Source: a virus (lineage: Duplodnaviria > Caudoviricetes). Taken from it: a stretch of 51,437 bases of DNA. A model generated the notes under the pieces. It worked only from the letters and a program-made list of their open reading frames with translations, had not been told where the DNA came from and did no database searches. This document shows, in pieces, positions 11,771 through 49,429 of this stretch; within the stretch, counting starts at the first letter, position 1; each line of letters opens with the position of its first letter. A program made the translations under genes and the position numbers. Location: the IMG/VR virus record IMGVR_UViG_3300021378_002534, positions 1 to 51,437 of that record, one strand, 5' to 3'.

Positions 11771-11771
11771 A

Positions 11772-29821: not shown

Positions 29822-30280
29822 ATGCAATTTTACAAACCAAACTCTCAGAATACAGGCACGGCATTCGGATTCAGGATTGGAACTCAAGGTAAGACAGAAA
29901 AACCTTGTCTTTATATGACTGCGGTCAAACAATTCTCCTGGGATTCCAACAAAAGAAGCGGCTCCTTTTCTGGCAACGCTAAAAATCCAGACAAGTGTGC
30001 TATCGTTAAATTTAACGAGTTCGAGATCGGAGGGTTTATCTATGCTATAGAAAACTACGATAAGTTTGGTGCTTTTCATAGCTTCGATGATAACAAAACA
30101 GGGATATCATTGAACCCTTACTCTAAGAAAGATGGCACAAAAGCTTATTCTTTTACCGTTACAAGAAATTCCTCTAATAAATTTGGGATGGGCATTGAGA
30201 TGTCAGAAGCTTATGCTTTATGTCAATACTTTAAATATGTTCTAAATGAAATATTTAAGTTTAACCCAATGTCAAAATAA
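29822..30280 (+). CDS. Putative Whirly/PC4-like ssDNA-binding protein
   Basis: FYK, VKFNEFEIGGFI, AFH, DG...YSFTV and IEMSEAYAL occur in the same order as Whirly motifs (by-eye alignment). Confidence 0.5.
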   Translation: MQFYKPNSQNTGTAFGFRIGTQGKTEKPCLYMTAVKQFSWDSNKRSGSFSGNAKNPDKCAIVKFNEFEIGGFIYAIENYDKFGAFHSFDDNKTGISLNPYSKKDGTKAYSFTVTRNSSNKFGMGIEMSEAYALCQYFKYVLNEIFKFNPMSK

Positions 30281-32139: not shown

Positions 32140-32140
32140 A

Positions 32141-33301
32141 ATGCCACATCTATTAAAAGAATATTCAAAAAACCTAGGAGTTCAGCCAGTTATGCCCATG
32201 GTTAATAGGCATTTTTATCCTATTGAGCCTGATAAGTATATCGTTGTATATAACGAGCAAGATGTACAATCAAAAAATTACAATTACTATCAAATAGCCA
32301 TTAGCCTAATCAAAAATACCCTACAAGAAAGCGGTTATAAAGTTGTGGTTATAGGCTCTTCCAAAAAACTAATAGAAGGTGCTGATCATTACTACCCTAA
32401 TTTATCTTTCAGAAAGTATTGTTATATAATTTCTAAGGCGTCGGCGTTTATATCTGTGGACAATGCATTGACACAGTATGCAAGTTCCTGCAAAGTTCCA
32501 GTCGTTAATCTTTATGGCAATATATACCCCTCTATAACTACTCCTTATTGGGCTAGCAAAAAAAACAAAATAGACCTTGCTCCAGAGTGGGATAAAAAAC
32601 CCTGTTTGTCAGTTATTGACCCTAAAGAATCAATCAATAATATTAAGCCAGAAGTTGTAGCTGGTTCCATACTTAAAGCTTTGGGTTTTCCCGACGATAT
32701 TAAAATTGGTTTTAAAACAAAAAGAATAAATAAAACAAAGTATTTTCAGGTGGACGTAATTCCTACTCGATACGTCAGATCTCCCTTGTTCGATAATAAT
32801 GTTTTAAACATAAGGCTTGATGAAGGAGTAATGAACGAAGAAGCCTTGTTTCATTACTGTACAAATCACGCCTGTAATATAATTACTAAAGATTCATTGC
32901 TGGATTTAAAGTCATTGCAAAGAATTTCTAAGAACATAAAAAGAATTATATTTAAAGCCTCAGAAGTGCCATCTAAAATACCCGAAATATATTTTGAAGT
33001 TCTTAAAAAACTAGGCATAGATTTTATGTTCTTGGTTAGTAATCAAGATATATTAGACGAAATGAGACTGGAGTATTTTGATCAAGATGTAGAATTTATA
33101 GAGACATTGAAAGAGAAGCCTTCTGATTTAAACCTGTCTGATAAGTTCATTTCTTTTAAAACCGTTATAGATGGTGATAAGTCTTACAAATCTTTATCCC
33201 ATTGGAAAAAAAACCTTGACTCAGACAACAATATAATAGATAATCTTAACTACTGGGAAGAACTAGATTACTTTTATATTTATGAGCAAGAAAACAACTA
33301 A
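32141..33301 (+). CDS. Protein beginning with a GT9-like C-terminal half, plus an unknown domain
   Basis: KVVVIG...YCYIISKASAFISVDNALTQYASSCKVPVVNLYG...INNIKPEVV. ATG at 32141, one base after the upstream stop. Confidence 0.7.
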   Translation: MPHLLKEYSKNLGVQPVMPMVNRHFYPIEPDKYIVVYNEQDVQSKNYNYYQIAISLIKNTLQESGYKVVVIGSSKKLIEGADHYYPNLSFRKYCYIISKASAFISVDNALTQYASSCKVPVVNLYGNIYPSITTPYWASKKNKIDLAPEWDKKPCLSVIDPKESINNIKPEVVAGSILKALGFPDDIKIGFKTKRINKTKYFQVDVIPTRYVRSPLFDNNVLNIRLDEGVMNEEALFHYCTNHACNIITKDSLLDLKSLQRISKNIKRIIFKASEVPSKIPEIYFEVLKKLGIDFMFLVSNQDILDEMRLEYFDQDVEFIETLKEKPSDLNLSDKFISFKTVIDGDKSYKSLSHWKKNLDSDNNIIDNLNYWEELDYFYIYEQENN

Positions 33302-34725: not shown

Positions 34726-36393
34726 TTAGATTGATGTTTTGTAGTATTTAAAAATGTCAAATTCATTTCCAGATATATTACACAAAAGCATTATGCCGCT
34801 GTCTAAGTAAGAAAGCTGGAAGTCTACAGCGTCATCTTGAGATTTGTTATCTATTATTTTAAATAAAGGATAACCAAAGTTTCCAGGCTCTTGTGAGGTT
34901 CCTGTCGGGACTATAGTTATCTTTCTGGATTCTACAGAATAAAAATCCTCCTCTTTTCTGAATTCAAAAGTATAATCAAAAGTTGTGTTTTCCCATTTTC
35001 CGTTTTCGTCTAAGACCATTGAGTTATATTCTGGAGTATCATTAGAGTATGATTCATATATAGGCTTTGTTGTTTGAGGATTATCCTTATCGACAAAGAT
35101 TTTATCTAGCACTCCAGATTCATAGTGTAATACAGAGTCTATTTTCTGTTCTCTAAATTTAATGCTGGCAGAAGATTCAGAGCTATCAATTTTAATTTCT
35201 GTAGAAGCGACTATGTTTTGAGAAGGCTCAATATATTTCTTCATATTTAATGGCCCTATTATATATTCTTCGCCTTCCCCTATAAGTGAATAGGGTTTAA
35301 ATTTCAACCATGTATTTTTGTTGTATTCTAAGCCTAAATCTTCGGCATAACTTTCATAGAAGAGGCTATCTTTTATTTCCGATATCTTTTTTACAAAGGT
35401 AAAACCTTCTAAATCTAAATTGTCTCCCTTGTATTGATAAAGATCAATATGAGAATATTCGGTATATTCAGTTGTATTTAATAAATTAACTTCTAGCTGT
35501 ATTTCTTCTTCTGGTAGTTGTCCAGTTGAATAAGGCAACTTAACTATACCTTTGTTTGTTCTAGCTGGTTCTTTTAAGTGGTCTAGTATGTAGCCGCTAC
35601 CCATGCTGTCCGAATATGTTCCGAAAGGATTACTAAAGTTTTCAGATCCAGATGATATCAAGAACGATCCGTTAGGGCTGTAGTCCATTATGACTAATGA
35701 CCACGCGCCTTCGTTGGAAAAACCTGAAAATTCTGAAGAAAAATCATCGTAACTTACGTATCCAGATAATTCATCAGGATCAAACTCCCACGTTAAATAA
35801 CCTTCCCAAGGGTAGTAAACCCCTTCGTGCAATACTTCTCCAGATGTAGTGTATTTGGATGATGTATTATAGCCAGCAGATTTATACATCTTGCCAGTAT
35901 ATGAGTATCCAGAGGGTTGAAGATTCCCGCTAAAAAATACACCTAAAGACTCTTCGTAGTTCGATGTTCCATTACTATCTGCTGCCTTTATGCCGCTTAT
36001 TTCTAAATTATTTGCATATAAAGACACATATCCAGAAGGGCTATAAACACTTGTTTCGTCTATAACTGTGCCGATAACTCCAAAATCTTTTTTATAATTT
36101 CCAAAAATTAATTCATTACTCCTCTCTGTGAATAACAACTTATTGCTTTGTCCGCTTTGGAAATTTTTTTCTACTATGTTGCCATTTTCATCTGTTATAT
36201 CAAAGATGATTCCATCACAAAAAGAACTTTTCATTATATTTTCTTTGTTGTATAAAATTTCTCCATCTCTATCCATAACATTAAATGTTATTTCTACGTC
36301 TTTTTTTGTATGAACGCCGCTTCCAGATCCTAAAGAAGTTAAATCTTGAGAGTCGTAATCAAAACCTGCTTGGAATTCTTTTATATCTTTCAT
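34726..36393 (-). CDS. Putative tail-associated structural protein, acidic and Ser/Thr-Gly rich
   Basis: Last gene of the tail-tip operon, starting 4 nt after the J stop. Confidence 0.6.
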   Translation of the reverse strand: MKDIKEFQAGFDYDSQDLTSLGSGSGVHTKKDVEITFNVMDRDGEILYNKENIMKSSFCDGIIFDITDENGNIVEKNFQSGQSNKLLFTERSNELIFGNYKKDFGVIGTVIDETSVYSPSGYVSLYANNLEISGIKAADSNGTSNYEESLGVFFSGNLQPSGYSYTGKMYKSAGYNTSSKYTTSGEVLHEGVYYPWEGYLTWEFDPDELSGYVSYDDFSSEFSGFSNEGAWSLVIMDYSPNGSFLISSGSENFSNPFGTYSDSMGSGYILDHLKEPARTNKGIVKLPYSTGQLPEEEIQLEVNLLNTTEYTEYSHIDLYQYKGDNLDLEGFTFVKKISEIKDSLFYESYAEDLGLEYNKNTWLKFKPYSLIGEGEEYIIGPLNMKKYIEPSQNIVASTEIKIDSSESSASIKFREQKIDSVLHYESGVLDKIFVDKDNPQTTKPIYESYSNDTPEYNSMVLDENGKWENTTFDYTFEFRKEEDFYSVESRKITIVPTGTSQEPGNFGYPLFKIIDNKSQDDAVDFQLSYLDSGIMLLCNISGNEFDIFKYYKTSI

Positions 36394-36397
36394 AAAA

Positions 36398-39300
36398 TTA
36401 ATTTATTGTTATTCCGTCTAAAACCGCACCGTCTATTACGGTGTCTTCAGCTATACCTTCTATATTTATAGACGTATAATATATTGGAGAGTCTAGATAA
36501 TGGGTGTAATAATCATCATTATCATACTCGGCTCCAAGTGCTTGCAATGACAATCTATATTGGCCGTTGTTAATTATTTCTTCAAAATCGTAAGATCTTT
36601 CTTGTGTCTCATAATATTCGTATTCCGCCTCAAAGGCAGGTCTAATACCTAATCTATATCCAGTTGCATTTTTTACATTTCTCCAAGTACCTTCTATAGT
36701 TATACTTCCGCCACCTCCAAGAATATTTATCTTTCTAGCCGTCCATGTTACGCCTTCTGGTGTTGCTAATGGAAAGTACCTAGAGCCGTCCACTTCGTAA
36801 TCGCTTGAATAAGGGTCTACAAAAACGCTTTCATCCGAATAGTTTGTTTCTTCTATTTCTCTATACTTCCCGCTTTTGAATTGACTTGCTATAACCTCAT
36901 ATGAGTTATTTTCATTCTCGTTTATTGTTGAAACTTTGTAAACCCTGTCTGCCGTATTTTTTGTTTTAAATCTATATATAGACCCCTTTGGAATCAAAGG
37001 TGTTAATATCGAGCTTTCGTCGTTTTGGTCTACGTATAATGTGTAGCCGATACTTTCTTCGTTGGAGGCTTGTCCAGAAGCTATTTTTATATTTCTTATT
37101 TGTTTTGATTCATTTATTTGAATATCGGCGTCTATTATTGCTCCTTGTGTTTCCCTAAGGTCAAACCATGAATCTGCTAAGTAAACTGCCTCTGAACCTC
37201 TCCCGTTTCCATTTATTTGAAAGTTATACCAGCCATAATTAAGCTCGCTATTGTCGAAATTAGCGAAGTCTTCCGTCCATTCTCCATTTGTTTCCCCGCT
37301 AAAAGCTGATATATATTTATCGTAAGTCTCGGTGTGCGTAAAAGCCTCCCCTGTAGAGAATACCCAACCAGTGTATATGGTAGAATACCACAGGAAGTGC
37401 TTTGTTCCGTTTTCTTCCCCAGTGTAAAAAGCGTACTCATCTCTCAATACTTTTTGATTCAAGCCTTGAAGCTTTTTTTCTCTGAATCCTTCTTTGTAAG
37501 AATCAAATGAATATTTACCTGATAGATTCTTATTGGCAAAGCTTGCTGTACTGTTCCTTATTGTGAAGAAGTCGTGCCTTGATCTATCTTGCAATAATAT
37601 CTCCTCGATATCTTCTATTTGCTGCGAGCCAGTTGGGATATAAACAGTCAAATAACCTTCAAAGTTTTCTTTATCGTAAACATCAGATATCCTTATTGTT
37701 TTATCTTCTTTGTTTACCGATAAAACTTTACCAAAATTACTGGTTAGCGTTTTTAGTTCGTCTTCAATAACAATTAAATCTCCTGGTCTTACAAGTATTC
37801 CTTCTAGACCTGTAGAAAACGAAACATCTTCGTTCTCTTTTGTGGCTTTATAAAGAAGATGGTTTCCGAATCTCCTAGCTTGTGCTCTAGATGTCGTTCC
37901 AAAAGCGTCAACTTTTGTTTTAATTATACCTCTTTCTCTTATGTCTTTTTCGTTTTCTATATATTCTATCTTGGGTTCGTAATCATCTTGAGAATCATTA
38001 TATGCTACTTCTATAGCATTGTATTGCTGATCTTTTAAGGAAGATGAATAATTAAACACACCTTCAATTACGTTAGTGTTAGTAAAAACCATTACTGGTT
38101 CCTTTATTCTGTCGTCAGAAAAAGAAACAACTGAATCTGTAAAATAAAATAGCCCTTTAAAGTTACTTGCTACGAGATTTAGAGCATCATAAATTGTTAT
38201 GTCTCTTTGAAACAAAGTGTTGCATGTGTACCTTGGTTGTCTGCCTCCTTTTTCGGCATTGGCTTGCACTATATTGTCAGACACTCCTTCAAAATACCCC
38301 TTATTGTCTACAGCATCACAGAACCTTGCAATTTTATATAATTGCCATTTATTTACTTGTTCTTCTTCTATTATATCCCCTAAGCCTATTAAAGGATCTG
38401 TTAAAAGGTCGTAGATTATCCAAGCTGGGTTATCTGTCCAGCCTAATTTAAATGTTCCATCCCAATCTCCATCGTAAATCCTTGTCTGATCAGTTTCTGC
38501 TGCTTCTTCTAGGTCAGAAGCACTAAGCCAAAATCTTTTATCTGTTCCTCCAGGATTTAAAGGCGTGTAATTAGACGGTATTTTAACCTTCTTCATTCTA
38601 ACATCGTATGATCTTGATGGTATTTCTCCGAAAGTTCTGGAATCTAATTTTGTTCCTATTACGGCCGAAAAAGGATAATTTAAAGATCTAGGAACAATTT
38701 CCGTAACCTTAGCAACGTTTACTGTTTTTGATATAAGTGTAGAGTTAGACTCTGTGGAGAGCTTTGTTATCCTTACATATCTTTCTTGATAAATCTCTTC
38801 AAATCCATAGTCTTCACTTACTTTTGGGTTGGGTAATTCAAAAGGCTGAATAACAGAACCAGTGAATTCAGACTCTTTGCCTTCTTTGTCTTTGTATAAC
38901 TGTTTAACATAGCTTAATTGAGTTTTGTTATTGATGTTGTCTGGGTTGCCTATATCTACTGCTGCACCTCCTTCAATTAAAGATAGCACTCTGAAAAAAC
39001 GATCATATTCTTTTATAAATTGACCTTTAGAATCCTTGTTTTGTGGCGCTATGTAACCCACTTCCACCCTAAAGTTAACTATAGCTGGCATCTTTGTTCC
39101 TACAATCTTACTTTTATCTAATTTTTTCTCGTCAAGATGTACAGTGTCCCATAAACCTTCTACATTTAATGTAATATAAAAAGATTCGACGTTTGGATTG
39201 TATATAACATGAGTTACTGGTTGTGCTCTTTCGTTATAGTCTTGTTTGTAACTGTTCCAATCTGAAAAGTTAAAATTTCTAAATCCAAGATGCTTAGGGC

Positions 39301-41242
39301 TAGAAGGTCTTTTGTCGCTGCTTCCCTCTTCGACAGATTCAAGCCAGTCATTCTGACCAGTCTCTATATTGATTGCCATCTTTGGTATTGTATTTGGAGC
39401 TGGAATTCCTGTTCGTCCATCTGTATTACTTCTTGAGTTTTGCTCGCTTACAATTAAAGATCTTTGTCTTGGGTAGCCATTTTCATCTACTTTATTACCT
39501 TCTTCGGTGAAGTTCCATAAAGATTGCATTCTTTTAGTTAGATCGACATTAAAAGGTCCTAATAATCTTTTTTGTATATCTCTATCTAAATATATATTTT
39601 TAAAGAAACTCAAAGGTGTTTGTTGTCTAGGCCCTGAGCCGTCTCTATATTCGGCTAACACATTTAAGAAATTGTATTTTGATGCTCCCGCTCCACCGCT
39701 TATTTGAGGCATCTTAAAAATACCAAGATTCTTTGCTTTTTTATAAAATTCAATTTCAGAATTAAGCATTCCAAAACATTTAATTTGTCCCTCTACTATA
39801 ACTACTGTATTTGAATTTACTGATTCTCTTGAGAGTTCTCCTACTTTACTTTTAACTTCTACTCCAATTGAATTTAAATAGAATCCTTTTAATTTTCCAT
39901 TCCATGCGCCTGTAACACTATCCAATACAGGTATTAGCATGTTGATAGTACTTCTGTCTCTTGAGTACCAGTCATAATTGCCATTATAATCTTCCAATAC
40001 AAAATCAAGTTCATTTGATAAAATGGAATCATCTAGTTTGTTTATAAAATCGAATTCATTATCGGAAGTGTAACCATTTAATACATAACTAGGCTTATAT
40101 CTAAAGGCTACGTATGGTTTTGCGAGTTCTTCTTGTGAGGTGGCTGATGAATTGGCTGTTTCAAAGTCTGTAGCTCTACCAAATTTGGATTTTACTTGGG
40201 TAATAAAATTCGTTGAATTAAAACCGCCAGAAGAAATTTTAAATCCATAAGCCTCTAGTTTTTTCTTTAAATATTCCCATTCAAAAGGATTTGAAAGTTT
40301 GTTTACTGATATATCGACAAGATCGTTCAGACCTTTTCTTGCTACCGAATTAGTTTGAGTTTCCTCCCCTGACTCTGTATATATTTTTGTACAGTCAACA
40401 CTCGTATAAGGTGATGGGCAAATTCCTAGGTTGTAAAACTTACTGTAAGTTCTAAACATCTCGTTTTCAATATTGGCCCATGAAGGCGAGTACTCAAGAA
40501 TTAAGTCTTCACCCTCTATTGATTGATTTATTATAGCTCTGTAAGGTGTGCTTTCGTTATAAAACTTTTTGTTTCCAAACATAGGCCACTGATACTTACC
40601 TCCAACCGATGACTCCTTGGTCCATCTTTGGTCTCCAAATTTTTTAGCACCAATGTTTTTAACTTTTTCTCTTCTACCTTTGTGGTAATTAGCTAAACTA
40701 AATTTAGTCCAATACGACATAGGTTTTGAGTTAGAAAAAGATAAGCCAGAGTCAGCTAATACATTGCTTTTAAAATAATATGTTGTGTATTCTAATACAT
40801 CGTTACGCTTACCATATCGATTTTTAACAACACTCATATTTGTTTCAAATGGTTGTTGTCTTCTTGGGTTGTCGAAATTTAAATTTGTTATTGTTGCTAT
40901 TTCTTTCAACCTCGCTAAAGCATCTGTTTCTGCGCCGTGCCCTTCAAAAGCAGAATCTCCAACCTGTATCTTCTCTGTCGAAACCGACTGTTCTATTGGT
41001 GTGCCATTTAAATAAATGCCTTGTAGTAATTGGCTGTTATCAAGCCTAGACCCGAACCTATTACAAAGTCCGTCTATCGGACCTTGACACAACAAATCTA
41101 CAGATTCTGCAAATTGATAAGAAGCCCCAAGTTTATAAGAGCCAACTCTTGGAGGTTTTAATACTGGCGGCTTAGGAGGAGGTGGTTTGCCCCCTCCTTT
41201 TTTTGATCCAGCGTAAGTAAACTTTCTATTTAAATGTTTCAT
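36398..41242 (-). CDS. Tail tip attachment protein/central fibre (lambda gpJ-like)
   Basis: Motifs DLLCQGPIDGL, IYLNGTPI, YPFSA, WDGTFK.GWTDNPAWIIYDLL, PRYTCN, QARRFG and RPGDLI; FnIII-like C-terminus. Confidence 0.93.
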   Translation of the reverse strand: MKHLNRKFTYAGSKKGGGKPPPPKPPVLKPPRVGSYKLGASYQFAESVDLLCQGPIDGLCNRFGSRLDNSQLLQGIYLNGTPIEQSVSTEKIQVGDSAFEGHGAETDALARLKEIATITNLNFDNPRRQQPFETNMSVVKNRYGKRNDVLEYTTYYFKSNVLADSGLSFSNSKPMSYWTKFSLANYHKGRREKVKNIGAKKFGDQRWTKESSVGGKYQWPMFGNKKFYNESTPYRAIINQSIEGEDLILEYSPSWANIENEMFRTYSKFYNLGICPSPYTSVDCTKIYTESGEETQTNSVARKGLNDLVDISVNKLSNPFEWEYLKKKLEAYGFKISSGGFNSTNFITQVKSKFGRATDFETANSSATSQEELAKPYVAFRYKPSYVLNGYTSDNEFDFINKLDDSILSNELDFVLEDYNGNYDWYSRDRSTINMLIPVLDSVTGAWNGKLKGFYLNSIGVEVKSKVGELSRESVNSNTVVIVEGQIKCFGMLNSEIEFYKKAKNLGIFKMPQISGGAGASKYNFLNVLAEYRDGSGPRQQTPLSFFKNIYLDRDIQKRLLGPFNVDLTKRMQSLWNFTEEGNKVDENGYPRQRSLIVSEQNSRSNTDGRTGIPAPNTIPKMAINIETGQNDWLESVEEGSSDKRPSSPKHLGFRNFNFSDWNSYKQDYNERAQPVTHVIYNPNVESFYITLNVEGLWDTVHLDEKKLDKSKIVGTKMPAIVNFRVEVGYIAPQNKDSKGQFIKEYDRFFRVLSLIEGGAAVDIGNPDNINNKTQLSYVKQLYKDKEGKESEFTGSVIQPFELPNPKVSEDYGFEEIYQERYVRITKLSTESNSTLISKTVNVAKVTEIVPRSLNYPFSAVIGTKLDSRTFGEIPSRSYDVRMKKVKIPSNYTPLNPGGTDKRFWLSASDLEEAAETDQTRIYDGDWDGTFKLGWTDNPAWIIYDLLTDPLIGLGDIIEEEQVNKWQLYKIARFCDAVDNKGYFEGVSDNIVQANAEKGGRQPRYTCNTLFQRDITIYDALNLVASNFKGLFYFTDSVVSFSDDRIKEPVMVFTNTNVIEGVFNYSSSLKDQQYNAIEVAYNDSQDDYEPKIEYIENEKDIRERGIIKTKVDAFGTTSRAQARRFGNHLLYKATKENEDVSFSTGLEGILVRPGDLIVIEDELKTLTSNFGKVLSVNKEDKTIRISDVYDKENFEGYLTVYIPTGSQQIEDIEEILLQDRSRHDFFTIRNSTASFANKNLSGKYSFDSYKEGFREKKLQGLNQKVLRDEYAFYTGEENGTKHFLWYSTIYTGWVFSTGEAFTHTETYDKYISAFSGETNGEWTEDFANFDNSELNYGWYNFQINGNGRGSEAVYLADSWFDLRETQGAIIDADIQINESKQIRNIKIASGQASNEESIGYTLYVDQNDESSILTPLIPKGSIYRFKTKNTADRVYKVSTINENENNSYEVIASQFKSGKYREIEETNYSDESVFVDPYSSDYEVDGSRYFPLATPEGVTWTARKINILGGGGSITIEGTWRNVKNATGYRLGIRPAFEAEYEYYETQERSYDFEEIINNGQYRLSLQALGAEYDNDDYYTHYLDSPIYYTSINIEGIAEDTVIDGAVLDGITIN

Positions 41243-41245
41243 TTT

Positions 41246-41905
41246 TTATTGAGGCAGAGAAGCTTCGGATGGTGCTTCAGACTTAGTGTTGTCATTCCTG
41301 AAAGCATTATTTTGCATTGCTTGTAAAGGCAGCACGTTTTGAGGGTATGTTTTTACAGTCCCTTGGATAACTTGAGACCCAACCCTTAACCGACCATAAC
41401 CAATTGGCACAGAAACTCCTTGAGATGCTATGTTTGCCCTGTTTGCAAAAGCAAAAGACTTAGAAAGTGCGTTGACTGTAGATTCGGCTGCTACTGAATC
41501 TGGAAACTCTTGTTTTGGTGCTAACAATAAAGACAATCCAGTTGAAAGGAAAATGCCTCCACCTATAGTTAGGGCTGTTGCCAAAAGTCCTGCTGGGATG
41601 GCAGCTCCAGCTATCAACCCAGCTATACCTACCACAGCAGCGACAACACCTTGACCACAAATCATAGGAACGAAGTCTATTCTTTTAGGTTTCTTGTTTG
41701 ATAGGCTTTTTTTGTCCATTACCGTTTCTCCATCTATGACTAAGCAATAGTTCAAGCCCATCTGAGACAGGCTATTTAATTTTTTTTGAAATCCAGATCT
41801 ATTACATTCTATAGCATCAATAAGCGTATTTATGTTGTCTAAATTTAATTTTAATTCCCCTCCAAATTCCTTGGCTAAAATTCCATGTAATTTTATATTA
41901 GTCAT
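41246..41905 (-). CDS. Tail assembly protein (lambda gpI-like, ubiquitin-like N domain)
   Basis: IKLHGILAKEFG, IDFVPMICG, a hydrophobic Gly/Ala segment, and QGVSVPIGYGRLRVGS. Confidence 0.9.
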   Translation of the reverse strand: MTNIKLHGILAKEFGGELKLNLDNINTLIDAIECNRSGFQKKLNSLSQMGLNYCLVIDGETVMDKKSLSNKKPKRIDFVPMICGQGVVAAVVGIAGLIAGAAIPAGLLATALTIGGGIFLSTGLSLLLAPKQEFPDSVAAESTVNALSKSFAFANRANIASQGVSVPIGYGRLRVGSQVIQGTVKTYPQNVLPLQAMQNNAFRNDNTKSEAPSEASLPQ

Positions 41906-42323
41906 TTATAGAAATGTTGTGTTTTTTTATTTTATTTTCGAACTCTTCAAGTAAATCTAAGTTTGTTTCTGGTTCGTTAGGTCTGTGAATGTAGTATTTT
42001 TTTGTGTTTAATGAATAGATAGAGAACGGTACACAACTATTTTCAGACATTAAAATGTCAAAATCTGAAGGTTCCTCATCTCCTATTAGGTGACTATGAA
42101 AAATAGTTATTACTTCATATTTGTTTTTAAACATTAAATATTGCAAAGGGTCTAAAACAAAGTTATGTCTAGGATCAACAGCTATATTTTTACCTTCTTG
42201 AAATATATATTCTTCATTATGGAAACCTACCAATCCACAAACTTCATTTATAAGAGAACCTTCGCAAAAATTGGCTATATTTTCCAAGGCTTCTTTTATT
42301 GTTTTAAGTTTTTTAGTTTTCAT
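41898..42323 (-). CDS. JAB/MPN metalloprotease (lambda gpK-like, no NlpC/P60 domain)
   Basis: EVCGLV...IFHSH...PSDFD. Confidence 0.9.
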   Translation of the reverse strand: MKTKKLKTIKEALENIANFCEGSLINEVCGLVGFHNEEYIFQEGKNIAVDPRHNFVLDPLQYLMFKNKYEVITIFHSHLIGDEEPSDFDILMSENSCVPFSIYSLNTKKYYIHRPNEPETNLDLLEEFENKIKKHNISIND

Positions 42324-42336
42324 TTTTGTTTATTAA

Positions 42337-44778
42337 CTAAGAGCTAAATCTGTATCCATCAGTTCCAGGAAAACCTCCGAAAGGCAGAGTTCCGAATTCA
42401 CCCTCCACAAGTGTCTCTGCACCTATGTTGGGTGATCTTGGTGTTAAATACTGTAAATCTGCAAAGTCGTAATTAGCTCTTGTAAAAGGAGCTGTGGAAC
42501 TTCCTCCTGCAAAAGGATAATTTTTATCTCTGTAAAGCAAATCGTTTCCATTTTTGTGATCCTTCACATAAAAATCTCCATCTTGCTCAAATGGTTCTTG
42601 CCAAAAATGATAACAGGATTCTAAGATTTTAGTCTCTCTACCTTCTTCTTCTTTAATTAGCGTGTCCCATGTCTTAACTACCTCTACCGCATAATCAGCT
42701 CCCTCTGAAGTTGTATTTTGTTCTGATTTAAGGTTTCCAAGCTGCCCGTTGGTTAAAGATTTTCCCCAAATCCCTACGCTAGCAACCCGCATATCTTGTT
42801 GAGACCACTTAGTCTCATAGTTAGAGGGTACGTCATTAAAACGATCTATATCAACCAAAGAAAAATATTCCCCAGAGCTATCACTTACAGGCATATTAGT
42901 AGTGCCACCAAAAAACACAAATCTATCAGTGTCGGTTGTGATCATGTTTTTAATATAAAAAGTGCTTTGAGATTCTATAAAAACAGATTCTGTTTCTTCA
43001 TTATCGGGGTATGTTAAACAAGACCAATTAGCTCTAAATCTATTTTGGCCATTATGATAATCCTTCCTTAATGAAAATACAAAGTTTTTACTATTCTTTA
43101 TATCATAACCCCCCGAAGGAAGATTTGGCAAACCATTTCTATCCGAAATCCTAAAATAATCATCTGGCTCATTAACCCCTGCGAGTTTGACTCTATGCGT
43201 TTTCTCTGCGCATGTTGTTTCTTCGGCATACGGAGCGAAAGTATTGAACTCCATATATGGAGCTTTTTGTATTCCTATAACAAACTGACGGTGATCTGTT
43301 CCATAACCTACATCTTCTTTCGATGTTTTAAATATAATTTGATCTACATCTTCTTGTATATTTTGCTGGACAGCTTCTTCTGAAATCCCCGACCCTGAAA
43401 TCGCTAGAGGGTACAATTCGTAACGTTGGGGAGGTCCTAAATACTCCACATCCACCAAAACTGTAAACTCTTTAAGTGAATCATTAAGCGTTGACTGTGA
43501 CCATGCATCAGATGAAGAAGCTGTACATGAATTTTGGTTTGACTGGTTCAAATAGAAAGCATTATCATATGTTTCGGAAGCATAGCTTATCGACTCCCCT
43601 GCTAATTGCCTATAGCCCCAACCATTTAAGTTGTATCTAAAAAGACTTTTAGTTAACTCAGCCGAGTCGCTATAATTATCCTTTAATTTAAGATAGCTTT
43701 GGTGGGTAGACTCTTCATAGTTTTGCAGATTCCACATTTGCTGCTCGTAAAAGTCGGTCTCCAAAAATATTCTCTGAGACGAACTCTTAGCAAACCTTTT
43801 CTTACATTGGTTTAATTTCTTACCGCACCCATCTCTGTCCCAAAATTCTGGATTAGTTCTTGGGTCTATGCCCGCCCTCGCAAATTTTCTACATACAAAA
43901 TAAGTTAAAGAAGACCTAAATATACTTGGGTTATTTACGTCTTGTATTCTTACTCTATCGTTTACAATATAAACAAGATGTCCTGGGTTGTAAAATTTTT
44001 GTGGGTCATAAAGGTCTTTCGCATTAGAAAAAATAAAATCTTCTCCGAAATTTTCCATTCCTAGAAAGCTTCTGCCCTCGGCCGTAGCTCTATCTCTACT
44101 GCCTTTGGCTACCTCTACAATCTCCTTGTTTGTTAAGTTGCCTTGATTGCCAACGTCTTTACCATAAGTAAAAGGTTTTCCGTCATCTCTTTCTACTGCT
44201 GTTCCCCTGTAATCACACCCAGATCCTCTATAGTTCCATGGGCAATACTTGGCCAGTACTTTTCTATTAGTGAGGTTTCTTGATTCTATATCTAATGGAG
44301 AAGTTAATTCTAACTCTACAAAAGCTTTATTTTCTTGCCTTTTTTGAGATACAAAATAAATATCGACGGAAATTTCCGCCTTAGGGTCCGACTCTCCCCA
44401 AGGATTACCTAGATCAAAATTATCATCATCAAGAAACTTTAAGAAAGTCCTGCGTCTCTCTACCTTTGCGTTCCTAAAATCTTCGTTATTAGATAGCAGG
44501 TTTGTTAATAGCAAATCTTTATTAGAGATTCTTATTATAGGTCTATTAGGTTTTCCGCTAGAGTTTATTGAAAAACCTTCTGCCTCCATTGGTATAGGGC
44601 TATATAATTCCCCCTGCCAATAAACACCTCCACCAAATACAGAACCATTATGTACGTTTAAATAACTCTTTGGTTTGGTTACCGTATTCGGATATATTCT
44701 GTAAAAATCTATCACAGCTGTAGGCTCCATATCGAAGACAGCTTTCGTTATTTTATCCCTAGACCTTTCTAATCCCAT
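42337..44778 (-). CDS. Minor tail protein (lambda gpL-like) with large insertion
   Basis: Motifs WQGELYSPIP, RRRTFLKFLD, ELTSPLD, CPWNYRGSGC and CGKKLNQCKKRF; terminal LPFGGFPG. Confidence 0.92.
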   Translation of the reverse strand: MGLERSRDKITKAVFDMEPTAVIDFYRIYPNTVTKPKSYLNVHNGSVFGGGVYWQGELYSPIPMEAEGFSINSSGKPNRPIIRISNKDLLLTNLLSNNEDFRNAKVERRRTFLKFLDDDNFDLGNPWGESDPKAEISVDIYFVSQKRQENKAFVELELTSPLDIESRNLTNRKVLAKYCPWNYRGSGCDYRGTAVERDDGKPFTYGKDVGNQGNLTNKEIVEVAKGSRDRATAEGRSFLGMENFGEDFIFSNAKDLYDPQKFYNPGHLVYIVNDRVRIQDVNNPSIFRSSLTYFVCRKFARAGIDPRTNPEFWDRDGCGKKLNQCKKRFAKSSSQRIFLETDFYEQQMWNLQNYEESTHQSYLKLKDNYSDSAELTKSLFRYNLNGWGYRQLAGESISYASETYDNAFYLNQSNQNSCTASSSDAWSQSTLNDSLKEFTVLVDVEYLGPPQRYELYPLAISGSGISEEAVQQNIQEDVDQIIFKTSKEDVGYGTDHRQFVIGIQKAPYMEFNTFAPYAEETTCAEKTHRVKLAGVNEPDDYFRISDRNGLPNLPSGGYDIKNSKNFVFSLRKDYHNGQNRFRANWSCLTYPDNEETESVFIESQSTFYIKNMITTDTDRFVFFGGTTNMPVSDSSGEYFSLVDIDRFNDVPSNYETKWSQQDMRVASVGIWGKSLTNGQLGNLKSEQNTTSEGADYAVEVVKTWDTLIKEEEGRETKILESCYHFWQEPFEQDGDFYVKDHKNGNDLLYRDKNYPFAGGSSTAPFTRANYDFADLQYLTPRSPNIGAETLVEGEFGTLPFGGFPGTDGYRFSS

Positions 44779-44789
44779 ACCATATACCT

Positions 44790-44794
44790 TACAC
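44790..44794 (-). promoter_or_regulatory. GTGTA motif heading the tail-tip operon
   Basis: GTGTA-N11-ATG at 44778. Confidence 0.55.
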
Positions 44795-44877
44795 TAATTT
44801 TTATATACTACAGTTTAAAAGGCATTTTTAAAAAAAATAAATAGATTTTGTATGTTTTTTTCTTACTATAATCTGAA

Positions 44878-45081
44878 ATGAAAAATATCATCTACAGAGT
44901 TAAAGACAAAAAAGGTAAATATCAGCAAAGTTATTCAGCTTCGCTTCCTGATTCATATTCTTGGGCGAAATCCTGTGCGGAATTAACCAGAGGCGAGGTT
45001 TATGAGGATAAGTTAAATGATTTTGGTCTTACTGAGTCTTCTGTTAAAATTTACCCTAAAAAGAGAGATGAAAATCAATAA
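44878..45081 (+). CDS. Hypothetical protein
   Basis: 67 aa; TATAAT at 44867-44872, 5 nt before the ATG. Confidence 0.7.
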   Translation: MKNIIYRVKDKKGKYQQSYSASLPDSYSWAKSCAELTRGEVYEDKLNDFGLTESSVKIYPKKRDENQ

Positions 45082-45619
45082 AGTTGACTTTCAAGATAAA
45101 AAATTCAAAGAAACTTTAAAGTCGTACTTACTGGAATCTCAGCCTTACGAGGGTTATTCTTCTGATTTTTCTAATATTTATATAAATGATCGTGTAGAAA
45201 ACTTTATTAAAAGCGACCTCTCAAGAAGCGACTTCTCTTCTTCTTTTGTTTCTAACAAAGGAGACTCTCTATTTTTTCTTTTTTGCAAAAAAGATATACA
45301 AAACAACAGCTTACAGATTATATTTCCATTTCCAAATACTAAACTGGTTAACATTACATCCTTCACAAGATGGCCTTTTGCATTTTGTCATTTGATGTTG
45401 GATCAGCTTGAAAGGGCTGGTTTAGATAGAGCTTACGGAACCATAGAGAGAAAAAATAAAAAATCTAACTACGAGAAAGCTCTTATAAGGTTTGGGCATA
45501 AAATGTTTGAAATTCAGGACGAAGAAGGACAAAGGTTTAAAAAAGTTGTGATTAAAAAAGAAAACTTGATAAAAGCTCACAAAAAACTTTCACGTTTATA
45601 TAAAAAATATGAAAGATGA
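45068..45619 (+). CDS. Hypothetical protein, paralog of the next gene, possible GNAT-like fold
   Basis: Shares several motifs with 45616..46158. ATG at 45068 preferred over 45017. Confidence 0.65.
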   Translation: MKINKVDFQDKKFKETLKSYLLESQPYEGYSSDFSNIYINDRVENFIKSDLSRSDFSSSFVSNKGDSLFFLFCKKDIQNNSLQIIFPFPNTKLVNITSFTRWPFAFCHLMLDQLERAGLDRAYGTIERKNKKSNYEKALIRFGHKMFEIQDEEGQRFKKVVIKKENLIKAHKKLSRLYKKYER

Positions 45620-46158
45620 AGCATTTAGACCTGCATATAAAAAATATAAATTTTGAAGACAAGGAGTTTCAAAGACTTTTTTCTTTTTATTATTTAAAAT
45701 CTTTCCCTTATGGAGATTCAAGCTCGATGAAAACCATTTCCTCTAGGATGAAGGGTGCAAATGATCTTTTGGATGATCTAAGAGGTGGTGATTTAAGTTT
45801 ATGCGTTCTTAATGAAGATGATTATATGTTTTTTACTTTCTTTAAAAAAGAAAATGATGGAATAAATCTTAGCTATGGTTTTCCCAACCAATCAACAAGA
45901 AGGCTTGGTACTCTGCATCTTGGTCTTTGTATTTACAAACAAATGCTAGAAGCCTTTGATTTTTTTGGTGTAAATGAAATATACGGAGAGATAGAGAGGG
46001 TTTTTAAAAAAGCCAACTACAGAAATTGGCTTAAAAGACACCTAAAAGTAAGATATTGTGACAGTCAAGACGGCGGCATAGATAGGGTTTACTTTCCAAA
46101 AGATGAAATAAAAAAACACTATGAAGAGTTGCAAATTAAAAATAATAGGAACAAATAG
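45616..46158 (+). CDS. Hypothetical protein, paralog of the previous gene
   Basis: FPN and YG.IER..KK.NY motifs shared with the previous gene. Confidence 0.65.
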   Translation: MKHLDLHIKNINFEDKEFQRLFSFYYLKSFPYGDSSSMKTISSRMKGANDLLDDLRGGDLSLCVLNEDDYMFFTFFKKENDGINLSYGFPNQSTRRLGTLHLGLCIYKQMLEAFDFFGVNEIYGEIERVFKKANYRNWLKRHLKVRYCDSQDGGIDRVYFPKDEIKKHYEELQIKNNRNK

Positions 46159-46378
46159 CTCAACAAAACACCTGGACGGCAAGATAATGTCTGGTGATTG
46201 CGGTTTTTTAATAAAGACTGGCTTCTTAAAAGAGCTGATTCTTGATGATCAGAAGTTCATTTTTGATGTTAAATCTATAGAGTTTATTGATTCTAATGTT
46301 TTCCTGAAGGGTTTTATTTCTGACGAAAAGAAAAATGTTGGTAGGGTTGTCATGAAATATTTGTCAAAAACAGATTAG
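46121..46378 (+). CDS. Hypothetical protein
   Basis: 85-aa ORF ending just before the GTGTA motif. Confidence 0.6.
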   Translation: MKSCKLKIIGTNSSTKHLDGKIMSGDCGFLIKTGFLKELILDDQKFIFDVKSIEFIDSNVFLKGFISDEKKNVGRVVMKYLSKTD

Positions 46379-46380
46379 TT

Positions 46381-46385
46381 GTGTA
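46381..46385 (+). promoter_or_regulatory. GTGTA motif heading the fibre/adhesin operon
   Basis: GTGTA-N9-ATG at 46395. Confidence 0.6.
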
Positions 46386-46394
46386 TGTATTTGT

Positions 46395-46646
46395 ATGTCG
46401 ACATCAACACAATCTACCCTTTTAAAACAAGTAGGTCACTACGGCGGAGAGCGTCTCGTAGGTGACCAAACAGTGTCTGGCAAATTCATGGCTATACATG
46501 CCCTTGCTGATACAACAGTACAGGCTGGCACTGAAGGAAGCATAGGCAATTTCGTTGGAGCTACAATCGTCCTTGGTGACGTTATCGTAGGTCAATGGAC
46601 AACATTACACCTTTCAGGGGACGCTATAGTATATTACGCAGACTAA
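46395..46646 (+). CDS. Small putative virion protein
   Basis: Gly/Thr/Val-rich, beta-strand-like 83 aa; first gene of the fibre operon. Confidence 0.65.
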   Translation: MSTSTQSTLLKQVGHYGGERLVGDQTVSGKFMAIHALADTTVQAGTEGSIGNFVGATIVLGDVIVGQWTTLHLSGDAIVYYAD

Positions 46647-46847
46647 ATGAGAACCCTAAGACTACTCAGCAATACAATAAGAAGACGGTTTGTAGCCGTA
46701 GTCTTAGCTACTGGTTGTTGTCTTGAATTATGGAAAGACAGCGAAGAGTGGGATGATGATTGCACTTGGGTTGATAACTGCGACGACAAATGGTATAGCT
46801 TAGAAGTCTGGAACAGCAATGAAATTTGGCCTATCTGTGATTACTAA
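46647..46847 (+). CDS. Small protein with basic N-terminus and Trp/acidic periodic C-terminus
   Basis: WKDSEEWDDDCTW and WYSLEVWNSNEIW, with Trp every 6 residues. Confidence 0.6.
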   Translation: MRTLRLLSNTIRRRFVAVVLATGCCLELWKDSEEWDDDCTWVDNCDDKWYSLEVWNSNEIWPICDY

Positions 46848-46871
46848 CAATTTAAAGAAAATATATAAAAA

Positions 46872-47294
46872 ATGGCACAAAACACTTTTACCCCTACTGG
46901 GACAGAAACCCATCTAAATGCGAGACTAGTATGGAATGGAAACGCAACTGATGCAGAGTCAAGACTCGGCGCACTTGAACTTGTAACGCCTCAGGTGGTC
47001 ACTTCTTCTGGTGGGGTTTTGTCTTTCGACAATTCCCTCGGAAGTAATCTTTCGGTAGAACTTTTTGAAGATATTACTGATATTTCTTTTACAAATGTCA
47101 GCAATGGAGACTCTGGTTTGATTGAGGTTACACAAGACTCTCTTGGTTCTTGGACTTGGTCCGCAGGATCTCATATAGTTTTGTCAGGAGACTTGGCTGA
47201 TCTAGTTCTTATAACACCAACGACTGGAGTAGCTACGGTGGCATGGTATTACAATGACTCAATACTGTATCTGTATGTCAGTGGAGTAGTATAA
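46872..47294 (+). CDS. Short fibre-like virion protein
   Basis: N-terminal NATDAESRL shared with 48143..49429; C-terminal beta domain (ISFTN...G.I.VTQD..G). Confidence 0.65.
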   Translation: MAQNTFTPTGTETHLNARLVWNGNATDAESRLGALELVTPQVVTSSGGVLSFDNSLGSNLSVELFEDITDISFTNVSNGDSGLIEVTQDSLGSWTWSAGSHIVLSGDLADLVLITPTTGVATVAWYYNDSILYLYVSGVV

Positions 47295-47308
47295 AAATTT
47301 ATCTTAAA

Positions 47309-47800
47309 ATGAAAACTTATCAATTAATTAAACTAAGCCCATTAAAGCTTCAATACTCAAGTGTTAATGGTCTGCCATCATCCTTGACAAGGGATGCTGC
47401 CGCACCATCTACGCCAGATGGTTACGAATATGTCGAGAACCTGCCTAGCCCTGAAGAAGCAGCTCCAGAAGGACAATATTACGTTAGAGAACTGACGACG
47501 GAATCATATGGCTGGAAACTAGAGACTATTATTGAACCGCCTATAGAAGAAGTTACAAACATCCAAATGAGAGATGCCTTGATTGACGAGGGTCTTCATG
47601 ATACAGTTGACGATATTATTGCGGCAATGCCTGAAACTACAGATCAGGAAATTATCGATAAAAAGAAAATGTATGATTGGTGGCAACACGCTGCTATTTT
47701 TAGGCGTGACAATGCCCGTATAGCAACAATGCAAGCAGCGTTAGGTCTTACGGATGAGGAAGTTGACGCTATATTTTTAAATGCTTCATTAGTAGATTAA
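47309..47800 (+). CDS. Tail-fibre assembly/chaperone-like protein
   Basis: VTNIQMRDAL...W..A..FRRD...LGLTDEEVDAIF, a pattern typical of fibre-adjacent phage proteins. Confidence 0.65.
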   Translation: MKTYQLIKLSPLKLQYSSVNGLPSSLTRDAAAPSTPDGYEYVENLPSPEEAAPEGQYYVRELTTESYGWKLETIIEPPIEEVTNIQMRDALIDEGLHDTVDDIIAAMPETTDQEIIDKKKMYDWWQHAAIFRRDNARIATMQAALGLTDEEVDAIFLNASLVD

Positions 47801-47805
47801 TAATA

Positions 47806-48138
47806 ATGAGTTTGCTAAATGAAATATCAAATCCAGATGCCGACTTAAAAAAGAAAGTATCTAGAATTAGGTATATAAACCTCACAATAATAAAAGAAAT
47901 AATAAGATTCTGGAATGAAAGCAACGATTCTATATGGAATGGCTCAAATACTCAACAGATTCTTGACGAATTAGGAGAAGACGCTGAAGAAGTTTTAGAG
48001 ATAGACAAAGAAATATTAAATCTACTTTCAAACATACTAGGTGGTCGCCGTCAATCAGAGCTTGATTCAATAATTGCTAAGATATCAACTAGACCACAAA
48101 TATCAACAGATAGCAACGGAAACACAAAAATAATTTAA
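47806..48138 (+). CDS. Hypothetical protein in the fibre operon
   Basis: 110-aa helical ORF, tightly packed with neighbours. Confidence 0.65.
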   Translation: MSLLNEISNPDADLKKKVSRIRYINLTIIKEIIRFWNESNDSIWNGSNTQQILDELGEDAEEVLEIDKEILNLLSNILGGRRQSELDSIIAKISTRPQISTDSNGNTKII

Positions 48139-48142
48139 AACA

Positions 48143-49429
48143 ATGGCCCAAACACCTTTTAATCCGACCCCTGGAGTATCTACGCATCAAGATTGCGTGG
48201 ATACAATTAATGCAAACGTCACTGACGCAGAGAGTAGGCTCGAATCGCTTGAGTCTGCGCCTCCAGCTCACACCCACACGGTTTCAGAGATCACAGATAT
48301 CGCCGCTAACACAACTCTAGATTCTGTTACAGCAAACGGAGCAACTACAACAAACGATATTAGTGTAGGCAAGATTGTAACATTACATCCAACTAATTCA
48401 GTCAACGACAACACAGCCGCTGGCAACCAAGCCTGTTCTATTGGAGGAGTTGCAAACGTAGTAAACGGGAATCGGTCAGTAAGTTATGGAGGGCGTGAGA
48501 ACCAAGTGCCAGGCAACGACAGTTCTGCAATCGGAGGCTTCGGTCAAGTTGTGATTGGGCAAGAAGCGGAAGGATTAGGTTCAACAGACACAACCCTTAA
48601 CACAAAATACACAAGCGCGATTGGAACAATCAACAGCGTTGTCGGACTAGCTGGAGAGGGAACGTCATCAACATCCGCAGCACATTCTGCGGTTCTTGGA
48701 GGCAACACAAACATAATCGAAAGCGCAACTCAAGCGGTAATAATTGGTGGTTCTACAAACACAATACAATCTACCCACCATCGCTCAACTATCTTAGGTG
48801 GTCAGAATATCACAACCGATGCAGCGGATACAGCATACGTTCCAAACCTTAATGTTGGTGCAGGATTCAAAATGCCAACAGGAGCAACTGATGGGTATGT
48901 CCTCACGACTGACGCAGGTGGTGTTGGAACGTGGCAACCTTCAGCTGGAGGGCAAATAACTGTTTCTGATATTGATTCTGCGACAGCCGTAAGCGGTTAC
49001 GTTATCACTGCAGATGGTGGCGGAAATGCAACTTGGGAAGAAGCACAAGGAGGCGGAGGAGGCGGATTCAGTCTTGCTACGGTTACTACTCCTACATATA
49101 CTCAAATACCGCAACACACTCATCATCTTTATGACGACACTGATTTAGGAGGCGGTGAAAGTGGCAGTGGCAGTGGCAGTGGCAGTGGCAGTGGCAGCGG
49201 CGGTTCAGGTCCGTGCATGACTGTAGAGCTACTTGACCCAACTTTACATGATGGAGTTACAACTCACAAAAAAATAGGTTCTTCATGCGATGTGCTTTTG
49301 TTACCTCCTAGCGGATGCACTATAGATGGCGTTGTTAGTGATGGTAGTGTTAGCGGTTATGTTTTGACATCACAATATGAATCTGTATCAATATTTAGTG
49401 ACGGAGTTAGCGGTTACTACATACAATAA
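48143..49429 (+). CDS. Tail fibre/spike with beta-helical GG-x-N repeats and an (SG)7 tract
   Basis: TLDSVTANGATT; repeated S.I.GG..N; GYVLTTDAGGVGTW twice; SG repeat. Confidence 0.8.
   Translation: MAQTPFNPTPGVSTHQDCVDTINANVTDAESRLESLESAPPAHTHTVSEITDIAANTTLDSVTANGATTTNDISVGKIVTLHPTNSVNDNTAAGNQACSIGGVANVVNGNRSVSYGGRENQVPGNDSSAIGGFGQVVIGQEAEGLGSTDTTLNTKYTSAIGTINSVVGLAGEGTSSTSAAHSAVLGGNTNIIESATQAVIIGGSTNTIQSTHHRSTILGGQNITTDAADTAYVPNLNVGAGFKMPTGATDGYVLTTDAGGVGTWQPSAGGQITVSDIDSATAVSGYVITADGGGNATWEEAQGGGGGGFSLATVTTPTYTQIPQHTHHLYDDTDLGGGESGSGSGSGSGSGSGGSGPCMTVELLDPTLHDGVTTHKKIGSSCDVLLLPPSGCTIDGVVSDGSVSGYVLTSQYESVSIFSDGVSGYYIQ
49160..49201 (+). repeat. Coding hexanucleotide microsatellite (AGTGGC)6 AGCGGC, encoding (Ser-Gly)7
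   Basis: Read directly from the sequence. Confidence 0.95.

Follow-up and report, generated by a model that had tools for sequence, protein, structure and literature searches.

A hydrophobic-[Ser/Thr]-Gly motif in a clade of large tailed phages is a putative acceptor address for virion O-glycosylation by three phage-encoded transferases

We analyzed 51 kb of DNA from a large, AT-rich tailed phage (positions 1 to 51,437 of IMG/VR record IMGVR_UViG_3300021378_002534; 52 open reading frames, ORFs; this whole stretch is called the window below) together with its relatives, in which Ser or Thr followed by Gly ([ST]G) and preceded by a hydrophobic residue occurs in excess. The excess is in frame and independent of protein fold, and in one lineage the motif excess is absent jointly with three glycosyltransferases (GTs): GT4a, GT4b and a GT9-like ORF, together called the trio. 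Structural models further predict that some motif sites lie within helices and that the two halves of a split GT9 enzyme pair with each other. We favor, with moderate confidence, the explanation that the virion undergoes sequon-directed O-glycosylation by phage enzymes, with hydrophobic-[Ser/Thr]-Gly as the putative acceptor address. An initial annotation of the window had taken [ST]G for the attachment sequon of a proteoglycan-like coat built by at least seven GTs. Its central idea, a modification sequon tied to phage GTs, gained from the clade-wide in-frame excess, the helical sites and the joint absence with the trio; its proteoglycan element, the participation of all seven GTs and the inclusion of gpJ, gpL and the fibre did not hold.

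Clade-wide excess of the motif

We fetched 26 related IMG/VR records whole or nearly whole, called genes, masked low-complexity sequence, and selected proteins rich in S/T/G and poor in K/R by a criterion that took no account of the motif. Three groups were compared: 14 trio-bearing genomes (the window included), 12 records of a trio-less lineage, and the structural regions of seven cultured phages as controls; G013, a 59-kb fragment with one S/T/G-rich protein and no trio loci, was uninformative and was excluded from the group counts. Hydrophobic-[ST]-G occurred 1662 times against 852 expected in the 282 S/T/G-rich proteins of the trio genomes (1.95x, range 1.46-2.64), compared with 1.31x in the trio-less lineage (106 proteins; 1.32x without the spurious antisense repeat ORFs that the G003 counts include) and 1.30x in the cultured phages (73 proteins). 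Ser-Gly (SG, 1.53x) and Thr-Gly (TG, 1.31x) ranked first and third by enrichment among all dipeptides of the trio genomes, while TG stood at 1.01x in the controls and 0.92x in the trio-less lineage; unlike SG and TG, the pairs DG, NG and AG were not raised. Thirty-six of 1549 single proteins reached p<0.002 in the trio genomes, where chance predicts about 3, against 0 of 516 in the trio-less lineage and 0 of 274 in the controls. The [ST]G excess is thus real at the level of the clade, and the comparison of genomes by GT presence suggested by the initial annotation did separate them, according to the trio and not to all seven GTs.

The excess was confined to reading frame 0, and a motif acting at the DNA level was rejected for this reason. 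Sites were preceded by C, L, I, V or F, and Pro and Gly were avoided at +2. The strongest proteins (2-5.7x) included leucine-rich repeat (LRR) solenoids as well as LamG-like, propeller-like and heptad-repeat proteins, and helical proteins carried the motif too; fold labels other than LRR are our own reading of the sequences. When LRR proteins were removed, the trio-genome excess was still 1.88x. The major capsid protein (MCP) was depleted, with [ST]G at 0.58x expected in 11 trio genomes.

The motif in repeats and helices

The LRR ORF of the window is the end of a 1569-amino-acid (aa) protein in which a tube-like family-10 domain is fused to a BspA LRR solenoid; the family-10 profile matched residues 1-368 of P0013 (E 1e-105). 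Because its first 370 residues match this family, the LRR protein is probably a tail component. The labels "tube-like" and "neck" reflect gene order only, and searches of PHROGs and PDB profiles gave no match that names these proteins. Twenty-four [ST]G of the window ORF fell at two variable repeat positions. Across 14 phage orthologues, which are not mutually independent, [ST]G occupied these positions in 30/233 and 74/181 repeats, as against 29/2215 and 41/2313 repeats in 106 other BspA proteins, in which the same positions held TS, KS or ES. Gly at the two phage positions followed Ser or Thr in 30/31 and 74/77 cases. Solved BspA proteins carried mixed, mostly polar residues there. The relative G001 encodes between 28640 and 48383 (L081-L082) a gpM-like minor tail protein with LRRs (615 aa) and, consecutively, tube-like domains followed by very long BspA LRR solenoids (4393 and 1569 aa).

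Family 8, a 160-aa neck protein encoded two genes after the capsid gene, allowed sites to be placed on a structural model, which had a predicted local distance difference test (pLDDT) score of 78.9 overall and about 90 over residues 1-50. Both S10-G11 and S30-G31 sat within predicted helices (H4-17 and H26-35, pLDDT ~90), and at these modelled sites the motif is not an artefact of turns. Of 45 aligned rows, 25 have SG at positions 30-31; most others, the three trio-less rows among them, have EA, EC, LS or SA. Glycine is unfavorable in the middle of a helix, and something outside folding therefore seems to select the family 8 SG. From the polar replacements, we infer that the sites are exposed at the surface. 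Mapping of sites succeeded only in part, as the AlphaFold model of p555, the tail-operon protein of the window richest in the motif for its composition, was of too low confidence (pLDDT 47.8) for sites to be placed.

Co-occurrence with three transferases

All three trio genes were present in 14/14 motif-bearing genomes, and GT4a was found in 0/12 records of the trio-less lineage. We examined 160 loci around the gene upstream of GT4b (c16), among 425 that matched it: 148 held GT4b and the GT9-like ORF, seven were empty and five were too short, leaving 155 informative. In the seven empty loci, the flanking genes were joined across a gap of 35-140 nt, with no GT4a near SSB. These loci formed one clade (100/100 in the MCP and portal trees, 100/98 in that of the flanking gene), and three of four midpoint-drawn trees placed it among the trio-bearing genomes. 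The six records in which the empty junction was seen had hydrophobic-[ST]-G at 1.36x.

The complete trio-less genome G003 was without four of the 23 families present in at least 12 of the 14 trio genomes, namely the three GTs, whose two loci lie 26 kb apart in the window, and a 152-aa protein. The GTs were the only families found in 14/14 trio genomes and 0 trio-less records; no kinase or other modifying family shared this pattern of presence and absence between the two groups. As for the 152-aa CxxC...CxC protein (window 16266-16724), it occurred in 12/14 trio genomes and may be diverged, not lost, in G003.

The number of GTs does not drive the motif: motif-poor G003 retained at least seven other GT-family ORFs, GMD (GDP-mannose 4,6-dehydratase) and nucleotide-sugar enzymes (48 ORFs scanned), and this explanation was rejected. 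The window does encode the seven GT ORFs, GMD and FkbM that the initial annotation listed, as Pfam and PHROGs confirmed, but the notion that at least seven GTs make up the system fails on the same GT-rich genome and on the five families of the accessory glycan island, which occurred in 2-7 of the 14 motif-bearing genomes (GT2a 4, GT6 5, GT2b 7, FkbM 2, GT11 7). The island does not track the motif. Neither does GMD, whose epimerase/dehydratase cluster was present in 14/14 trio genomes and in six trio-less records. A possible role for the island is chain extension or capping; two of its ORFs (12401-13773; 292 and 170 aa) gave no Pfam or PHROG match.

Two further observations concern the distribution of the trio. 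In G004 (119731-139802, L095-L096), four of the proteins richest in the motif are encoded in a cluster with the trio. The trio-less lineage has huge frames of Thr/Gln/Glu dipeptide repeats (G003 ~145000-165000, L107-L108; family-8 tails in L449) and an excess of Thr-Pro/Pro-Thr (TP 218 vs 103 expected), and it may have moved to a mucin-like acceptor with other transferases.

Orthologous proteins with and without the trio

Comparison of orthologues gave a mixed picture that was mostly in line with co-loss. Loss of the trio was accompanied by a fall of the motif in family 8 (3.3x to 0.74x), family 10 (2.1x to 0.54x) and family 11 (2.62x to 0.88x), and the portal and family 13 were low in the motif with and without it. 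Whether homologues from phages without the GTs are equally enriched thus depends on the family: those of families 8, 10 and 11 are not, while families 5, 7 and 12 keep the motif (discussed below).

In seven pairs of trio genomes, Ser or Thr stayed a hydroxyl residue at a rate of 0.70 before Gly vs 0.59 elsewhere; in four trio-less pairs the rate was 0.58 at both. Ser and Thr interchanged before Gly in genome pairs. When sites were lost in trio genomes, Ser and Gly disappeared jointly in 150 of 362 cases, as compared with 63/220 for D/N-G (p ~0.002) and 39/149 for [ST]G in the trio-less lineage (p ~0.001).

Properties of the trio enzymes

GT4b consists of an N-terminal GT4 domain and a C-terminal lobe (the last 115 residues, ~505-619) that is likely the N-lobe of a split GT9, according to modelling; the adjacent GT9-like ORF would supply the linker and C-lobe, the part spanned by its Pfam match. 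The GT9-like protein likely starts at M34 of the listed ORF (32042-33301). Both lobes were present and predicted to pair, their genes being adjacent in 148/155 loci: a complex model of the C-terminal lobe of GT4b with the GT9-like protein scored 0.75, the best of three controls scored 0.00, contacts agreed to at least 81% across runs, and the partner had a pLDDT of at least 75. This mark is reached by 116/157 solved and 2/215 mismatched pairs, although the halves of a split gene may pass through likeness to solved GT9 enzymes. Against the PDB, the GT9-like profile (A4) matched WaaF (1psw, E 1.9e-5) and, at E 0.53, TibC (4rb4); searches with GT4a and GT4b profiles returned no relevant structure. 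GT4b also carries a CxxC...CxxC insertion whose cysteines (C264, C267, C282, C285) were invariant in 77 sequences, and the GT9-like alignment had no invariant Cys. All of the transferases are predicted to be soluble (maximum 19-residue hydropathy 0.61-1.66).

GT4a and GT4b fell in virus-dominated GT4 clusters, and a search of GTDB genomes found no cellular copy of GT4b. By tblastn against 50,697 phage records, GT4a and GT4b matched three cyanophages only, and no mycobacteriophage. In S-CBS4 and S-EIVl, cultured cyanophages whose GT4b homologue is distant, SG was the top dipeptide (1.5x) and TG showed scarcely any excess. In the records G030 (25085-26969) and G047 (31061-32737), GT4b comes in two pieces, which may reflect a true split or an assembly error. 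The conserved gene upstream of GT4b (window 29822-30280) had no match in the Pfam scan or the PDB profile search.

The window and its neighboring genes

Taken alone, the window makes a thin case for a motif excess. We shuffled all 52 ORFs at fixed composition, and two were enriched: p555, with 18 [ST]G vs 7.9 expected (p 2e-4; ~0.01 after correction for 52 tests), and the LRR ORF, with 24 vs 14.6 (p 0.004; not significant alone once corrected). The shuffles gave no enrichment for gpJ (19 vs 17.3), gpL (6 vs 8.3), the fibre (13 vs 15.7) or two small LRR fibres (5 vs 7.0 and 4 vs 7.1), and the claim of enriched structural proteins thus survived composition correction for p555 and the LRR ORF and not for gpJ, gpL and the fibre. 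Pooled, structural ORFs had 100 [ST]G vs 90 expected and the others 66 vs 65. DnaE showed a weak hydrophobic-[ST]-G excess too (6 vs 2.4, p 0.03). Orthologues of gpJ or gpL were enriched in G034 and G039, unlike the window copies.

The individual sites reported by the initial annotation were mostly confirmed. In p555, 18 of 45 Gly follow Ser or Thr, exactly as counted by hand, and in DnaE 9 of 53 do; gpL has ISGSG at residues 460-464; and the fibre has VSGY at residues 284, 404 and 423 and (SG)7 at residues 340-353, a run that its G001 homologue retains. The sequence DYDSQDLTSLGSGSG is indeed in p555, at residues 12-26 rather than at the very start, and the big LRR protein has 24 sites where about 20 were claimed, in an ORF outside the region (34726..49429) to which they were assigned. 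p555 had nine close homologues, and an alignment of nine rows showed SG gained and lost as a unit.

Features of the window that bear on the proposed glycosylation (one row per feature or gene group)
Feature	Position	Strand	Evidence or remark
LRR ORF, last 900 of 1569 aa, the protein being truncated at the window start	25..2727	+	Likely substrate
GT4a, core GT-B/GT4-type transferase, predicted soluble	3741..4811	-	phrog_2170 E 2e-16 only
Accessory glycan island: GT2a (10329), GT6 (11078), GT2b (11772), FkbM (13770), GT11 (14429)	10329..15199	+	
GMD family, GDP-mannose 4,6-dehydratase	15225..16253	+	PF16363 E 8e-104
GT4b, N-terminal GT4 domain and C-terminal lobe	30280..32139	+	PF00534, phrog_2170
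GT9-like ORF, linker and C-lobe of split GT9	32141..33301	+	PF01075 E 9e-8
p555, tail-operon protein directly after gpJ	34726..36393	-	Likely substrate; 18 [ST]G, 12 within residues 120-291
Lambda-like tail tip: gpJ (36398), gpI (41246), gpK (41898), gpL (42337)	36398..44778	-	
Fibre-like protein, three VSGY, acidic stretch and (SG)7 at 49160-49201	48143..49429	+	13 [ST]G vs 15.7 expected; SG 12

Besides these features, the window encodes NrdAB, RecA, DnaB, primase, DnaE and a ClpA-like ATPase, and its lambda-like tail tip operon runs gpL-K-I-J. Three adjoining but distinct ORFs encode the PHP domain, the 3'-5' exonuclease and the DnaE core (22049-25934). DnaE matched 79 IMG/VR loci at 54-95% identity on contigs of up to 206 kb, and about 1000 IMG/VR stretches fit the capsid pattern of the clade. 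Moraphages (PMC12619734) were rejected as relatives: as described in that paper, their contractile tail and family B polymerase place them in a different clade. A host search with GT4b in GTDB genomes returned 11 contigs of metagenome-assembled genomes (MAGs) from mixed phyla and assigned no host; these contigs are most likely misbinned phage. Among the 11 matches are two Verrucomicrobia bins and three Flavobacteriaceae bins, and a DUF1501 gene occurs in relatives. The DUF1501 gene and the two Verrucomicrobia bins (G003 L105:3-1088; loci L515 and L524) hint weakly at a host from the Planctomycetes-Verrucomicrobia-Chlamydiae (PVC) group.

Discussion

Several observations count against glycosylation at the motif. 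Most structural proteins of the window itself are not enriched, and the DnaE search of cultured phages found no cultured member of the clade (top match 28%). The empty junction was seen directly in 6/12 trio-less records, and the other six were placed by tree. The excess of Ser falls mostly on AGY codons (1.95x), with TCN at 1.31x vs 1.22-1.24x in controls; a single-step origin of new sites from Asn-Gly, Gly-Gly or Thr-Gly would produce just such a preference for AGY before Gly. S-CBS4 and S-EIVl, despite their GT4b homologue, have hydrophobic-[ST]-G at only 1.56x and 1.47x, inside the control range. Enzymes, likewise, retain Ser and Thr better before Gly (0.73 vs 0.64); because they show this bias, only the contrast between lineages in hydroxyl retention counts. 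Further points of this kind are taken up with the alternative that each supports.

A purely structural origin, which we consider unlikely, would make Ser/Thr-Gly a favored turn, cap or close-packing pair, with the trio acting on host lipopolysaccharide (LPS) or surface glycans and its loss coinciding with a remodelled tail. SG was enriched 1.25x in the seven unrelated cultured phages anyway, and part of the SG excess is indeed universal; the TG excess and the hydrophobic residue at -1 are not. Some families changed little without the trio (family 12, 2.08x to 1.81x; family 5, 1.54x to 1.15x), and family 7 (1.43x to 3.51x) and the MCP (0.83x to 1.58x) ran in the reverse direction. The trio-less lineage also has different tail-tip families, and because it is one clade, the contrast it provides is a single evolutionary event that could coincide with a change of host or tail. 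Finally, the GT9 part lies nearer to the LPS enzyme WaaF than to TibC, which acts on protein. Against a structural origin stand the helical sites at which homologues have EA or SA, the restriction of raised TG to trio-bearing genomes without a rise in DG, NG or AG, the LRR positions that control proteins fill with TS, KS or ES, and the spread of the motif over LRR, LamG-like, propeller-like, heptad-repeat and helical proteins.

It is improbable, more so than a structural origin, that the hydroxyl carries some other chemistry (phosphoryl, acyl or phosphoglycerol) or is modified by a host enzyme, the trio-less lineage having switched host and lost the trio as a side effect. Selection for a hydroxyl before Gly can be read from the statistics, the identity of an adduct cannot, and the mixed phyla of the 11 GT4b-bearing MAG contigs identify no host. 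On the other side, the three GTs, and no kinase-like family, have the distribution that such an enzyme would need. Protein glycosylation by bacterial hosts is mostly extracytoplasmic, while virions assemble in the cytoplasm, which speaks against a host enzyme.

That the trio glycosylates phage DNA in the style of the T4 glucosyltransferase, with the protein motif unrelated, strikes us as very improbable. Phage GT-B enzymes that modify DNA are known (as described in PMC12619734 and PMC9614988), some Atlas neighbors carry the GT4-conflict family, and GT4a and GT4b lie among replication genes. A DNA target is weakened, however, because no hydroxymethyl-base pathway was found in 136/158 ORFs of the complete genome G034: at E 1e-4, these had no hydroxymethylase-type thymidylate synthase, TET/JBP or C5-methyltransferase, only Thy1. 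The sole C5-methyltransferase seen was in trio-less G003, and a DNA target would leave the motif pattern unexplained.

We give almost no credence to the proteoglycan-like coat of the initial annotation, xylose-primed glycosaminoglycan (GAG) chains on Ser-Gly beside acidic residues: the fibre resembles the GAG signal at one spot only, the acidic stretch with (SG)7, its Serglycin Pfam match (E 0.005) is below the family cut-off, and the sulfotransferases of relatives occur in trio-less G003, but flanks are hydrophobic and D/E slightly depleted (0.101 vs 0.112 clade-wide; 0.125 vs 0.162 background within six residues of p555 sites), Thr-Gly shares the signal, no xylosyltransferase or GAG polymerase Pfam family was found in the 52 window ORFs or in 136 G034 ORFs, and the animal signal, as described, requires Ser, Gly, nearby acidic residues and the secretory pathway (PMC2063922).

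Under sequon-directed O-glycosylation, adding the first sugar to the Ser or Thr hydroxyl would be the task of one trio enzyme acting in the host cytoplasm, and Gly at +1 would open access to the backbone. Because some sites are helical, transfer would probably be onto nascent or unassembled chains. The two remaining trio enzymes would extend the glycan, each phage would add its own cap through the variable GT2/GT6/GT11/FkbM island, and the MCP would be spared. The fuller picture, in which the trio reads the sequon on unfolded virion proteins and places hundreds of glycans on neck, tail and fibres beneath a swappable accessory coat, is one we hold tentatively, at slightly less than an even chance.

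Such a system would work like known ones, yet by sequence it fails membership of both the BAHT family and GAG attachment. In mycobacteriophages Che8, Corndog and Myrna, phage-encoded transferases place glycans on the capsid and the tail tube (Freeman et al. 2023, as described in PMC12363180 and PMC12619734), at C-termini of these proteins according to PMC12619734. The likeness lies in a tailed phage using transferases of its own; there, as these sources describe, glycans sit on structural proteins and few transferases are essential. In the clade studied here, the MCP is depleted, as judged by motif only, neck, tail and fibre proteins hold many internal sites, and the enzymes are GT4-type plus a split GT9. 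TibC, of the BAHT family, is described as a soluble, WaaC-related GT-B enzyme with an inserted four-cysteine metal finger that modifies many serines of one autotransporter, and Ser-313 of TibA, one of two sites named, precedes Gly (PMC4358343). Typical of BAHT enzymes are a dodecameric assembly and an iron finger of four cysteines within the GT9-like C-lobe. The trio resembles TibC in soluble GT-B enzymes, in Gly after the acceptor and in a four-cysteine element. According to the same source, TibC takes Ser and not Thr and is a single chain with a beta-barrel, whereas in this clade TG is enriched and Ser and Thr exchange before Gly (by motif only), the GT9 is split across two genes, and it is the GT4 domain of GT4b, not the GT9-like C-lobe, that contains the four cysteines. 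TibC gave no significant profile match, and the window showed no ADP-heptose pathway. The animal GAG signal of serglycin, Ser then Gly with acidic residues close by (PMC2063922), shares Gly after the acceptor and the one (SG)7 run; the phage sites differ in hydrophobic, acid-poor flanks, the inclusion of Thr, and the lack of a xylosyltransferase and a secretory pathway. Chloroviruses glycosylate their capsid at atypical sequons (PMC9614988), a likeness in particle glycans at a short non-canonical sequon, but theirs are described as Asn-linked, on the MCP of a eukaryotic giant virus.

Among tailed phages, a few mycobacteriophages have documented virion glycosylation, and our literature search, which covered papers without their supplements, found no printed sequon and no paper on an [S/T]-G sequon in phage virions. 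The result names three testable genes and short substrates, among them the 160-aa helical neck protein with its natural SG and non-SG variants. If the proposal is true, a cytoplasmic, sequon-addressed glycosylation machine would be wholly phage-encoded and portable as a three-gene tool, and glycoengineering would profit from a soluble trio that reads a two-residue sequon. An abundant family of aquatic phages would then wear a sugar coat whose placement follows a readable address, with a bearing on the stability, adhesion and recognition of its particles in water.

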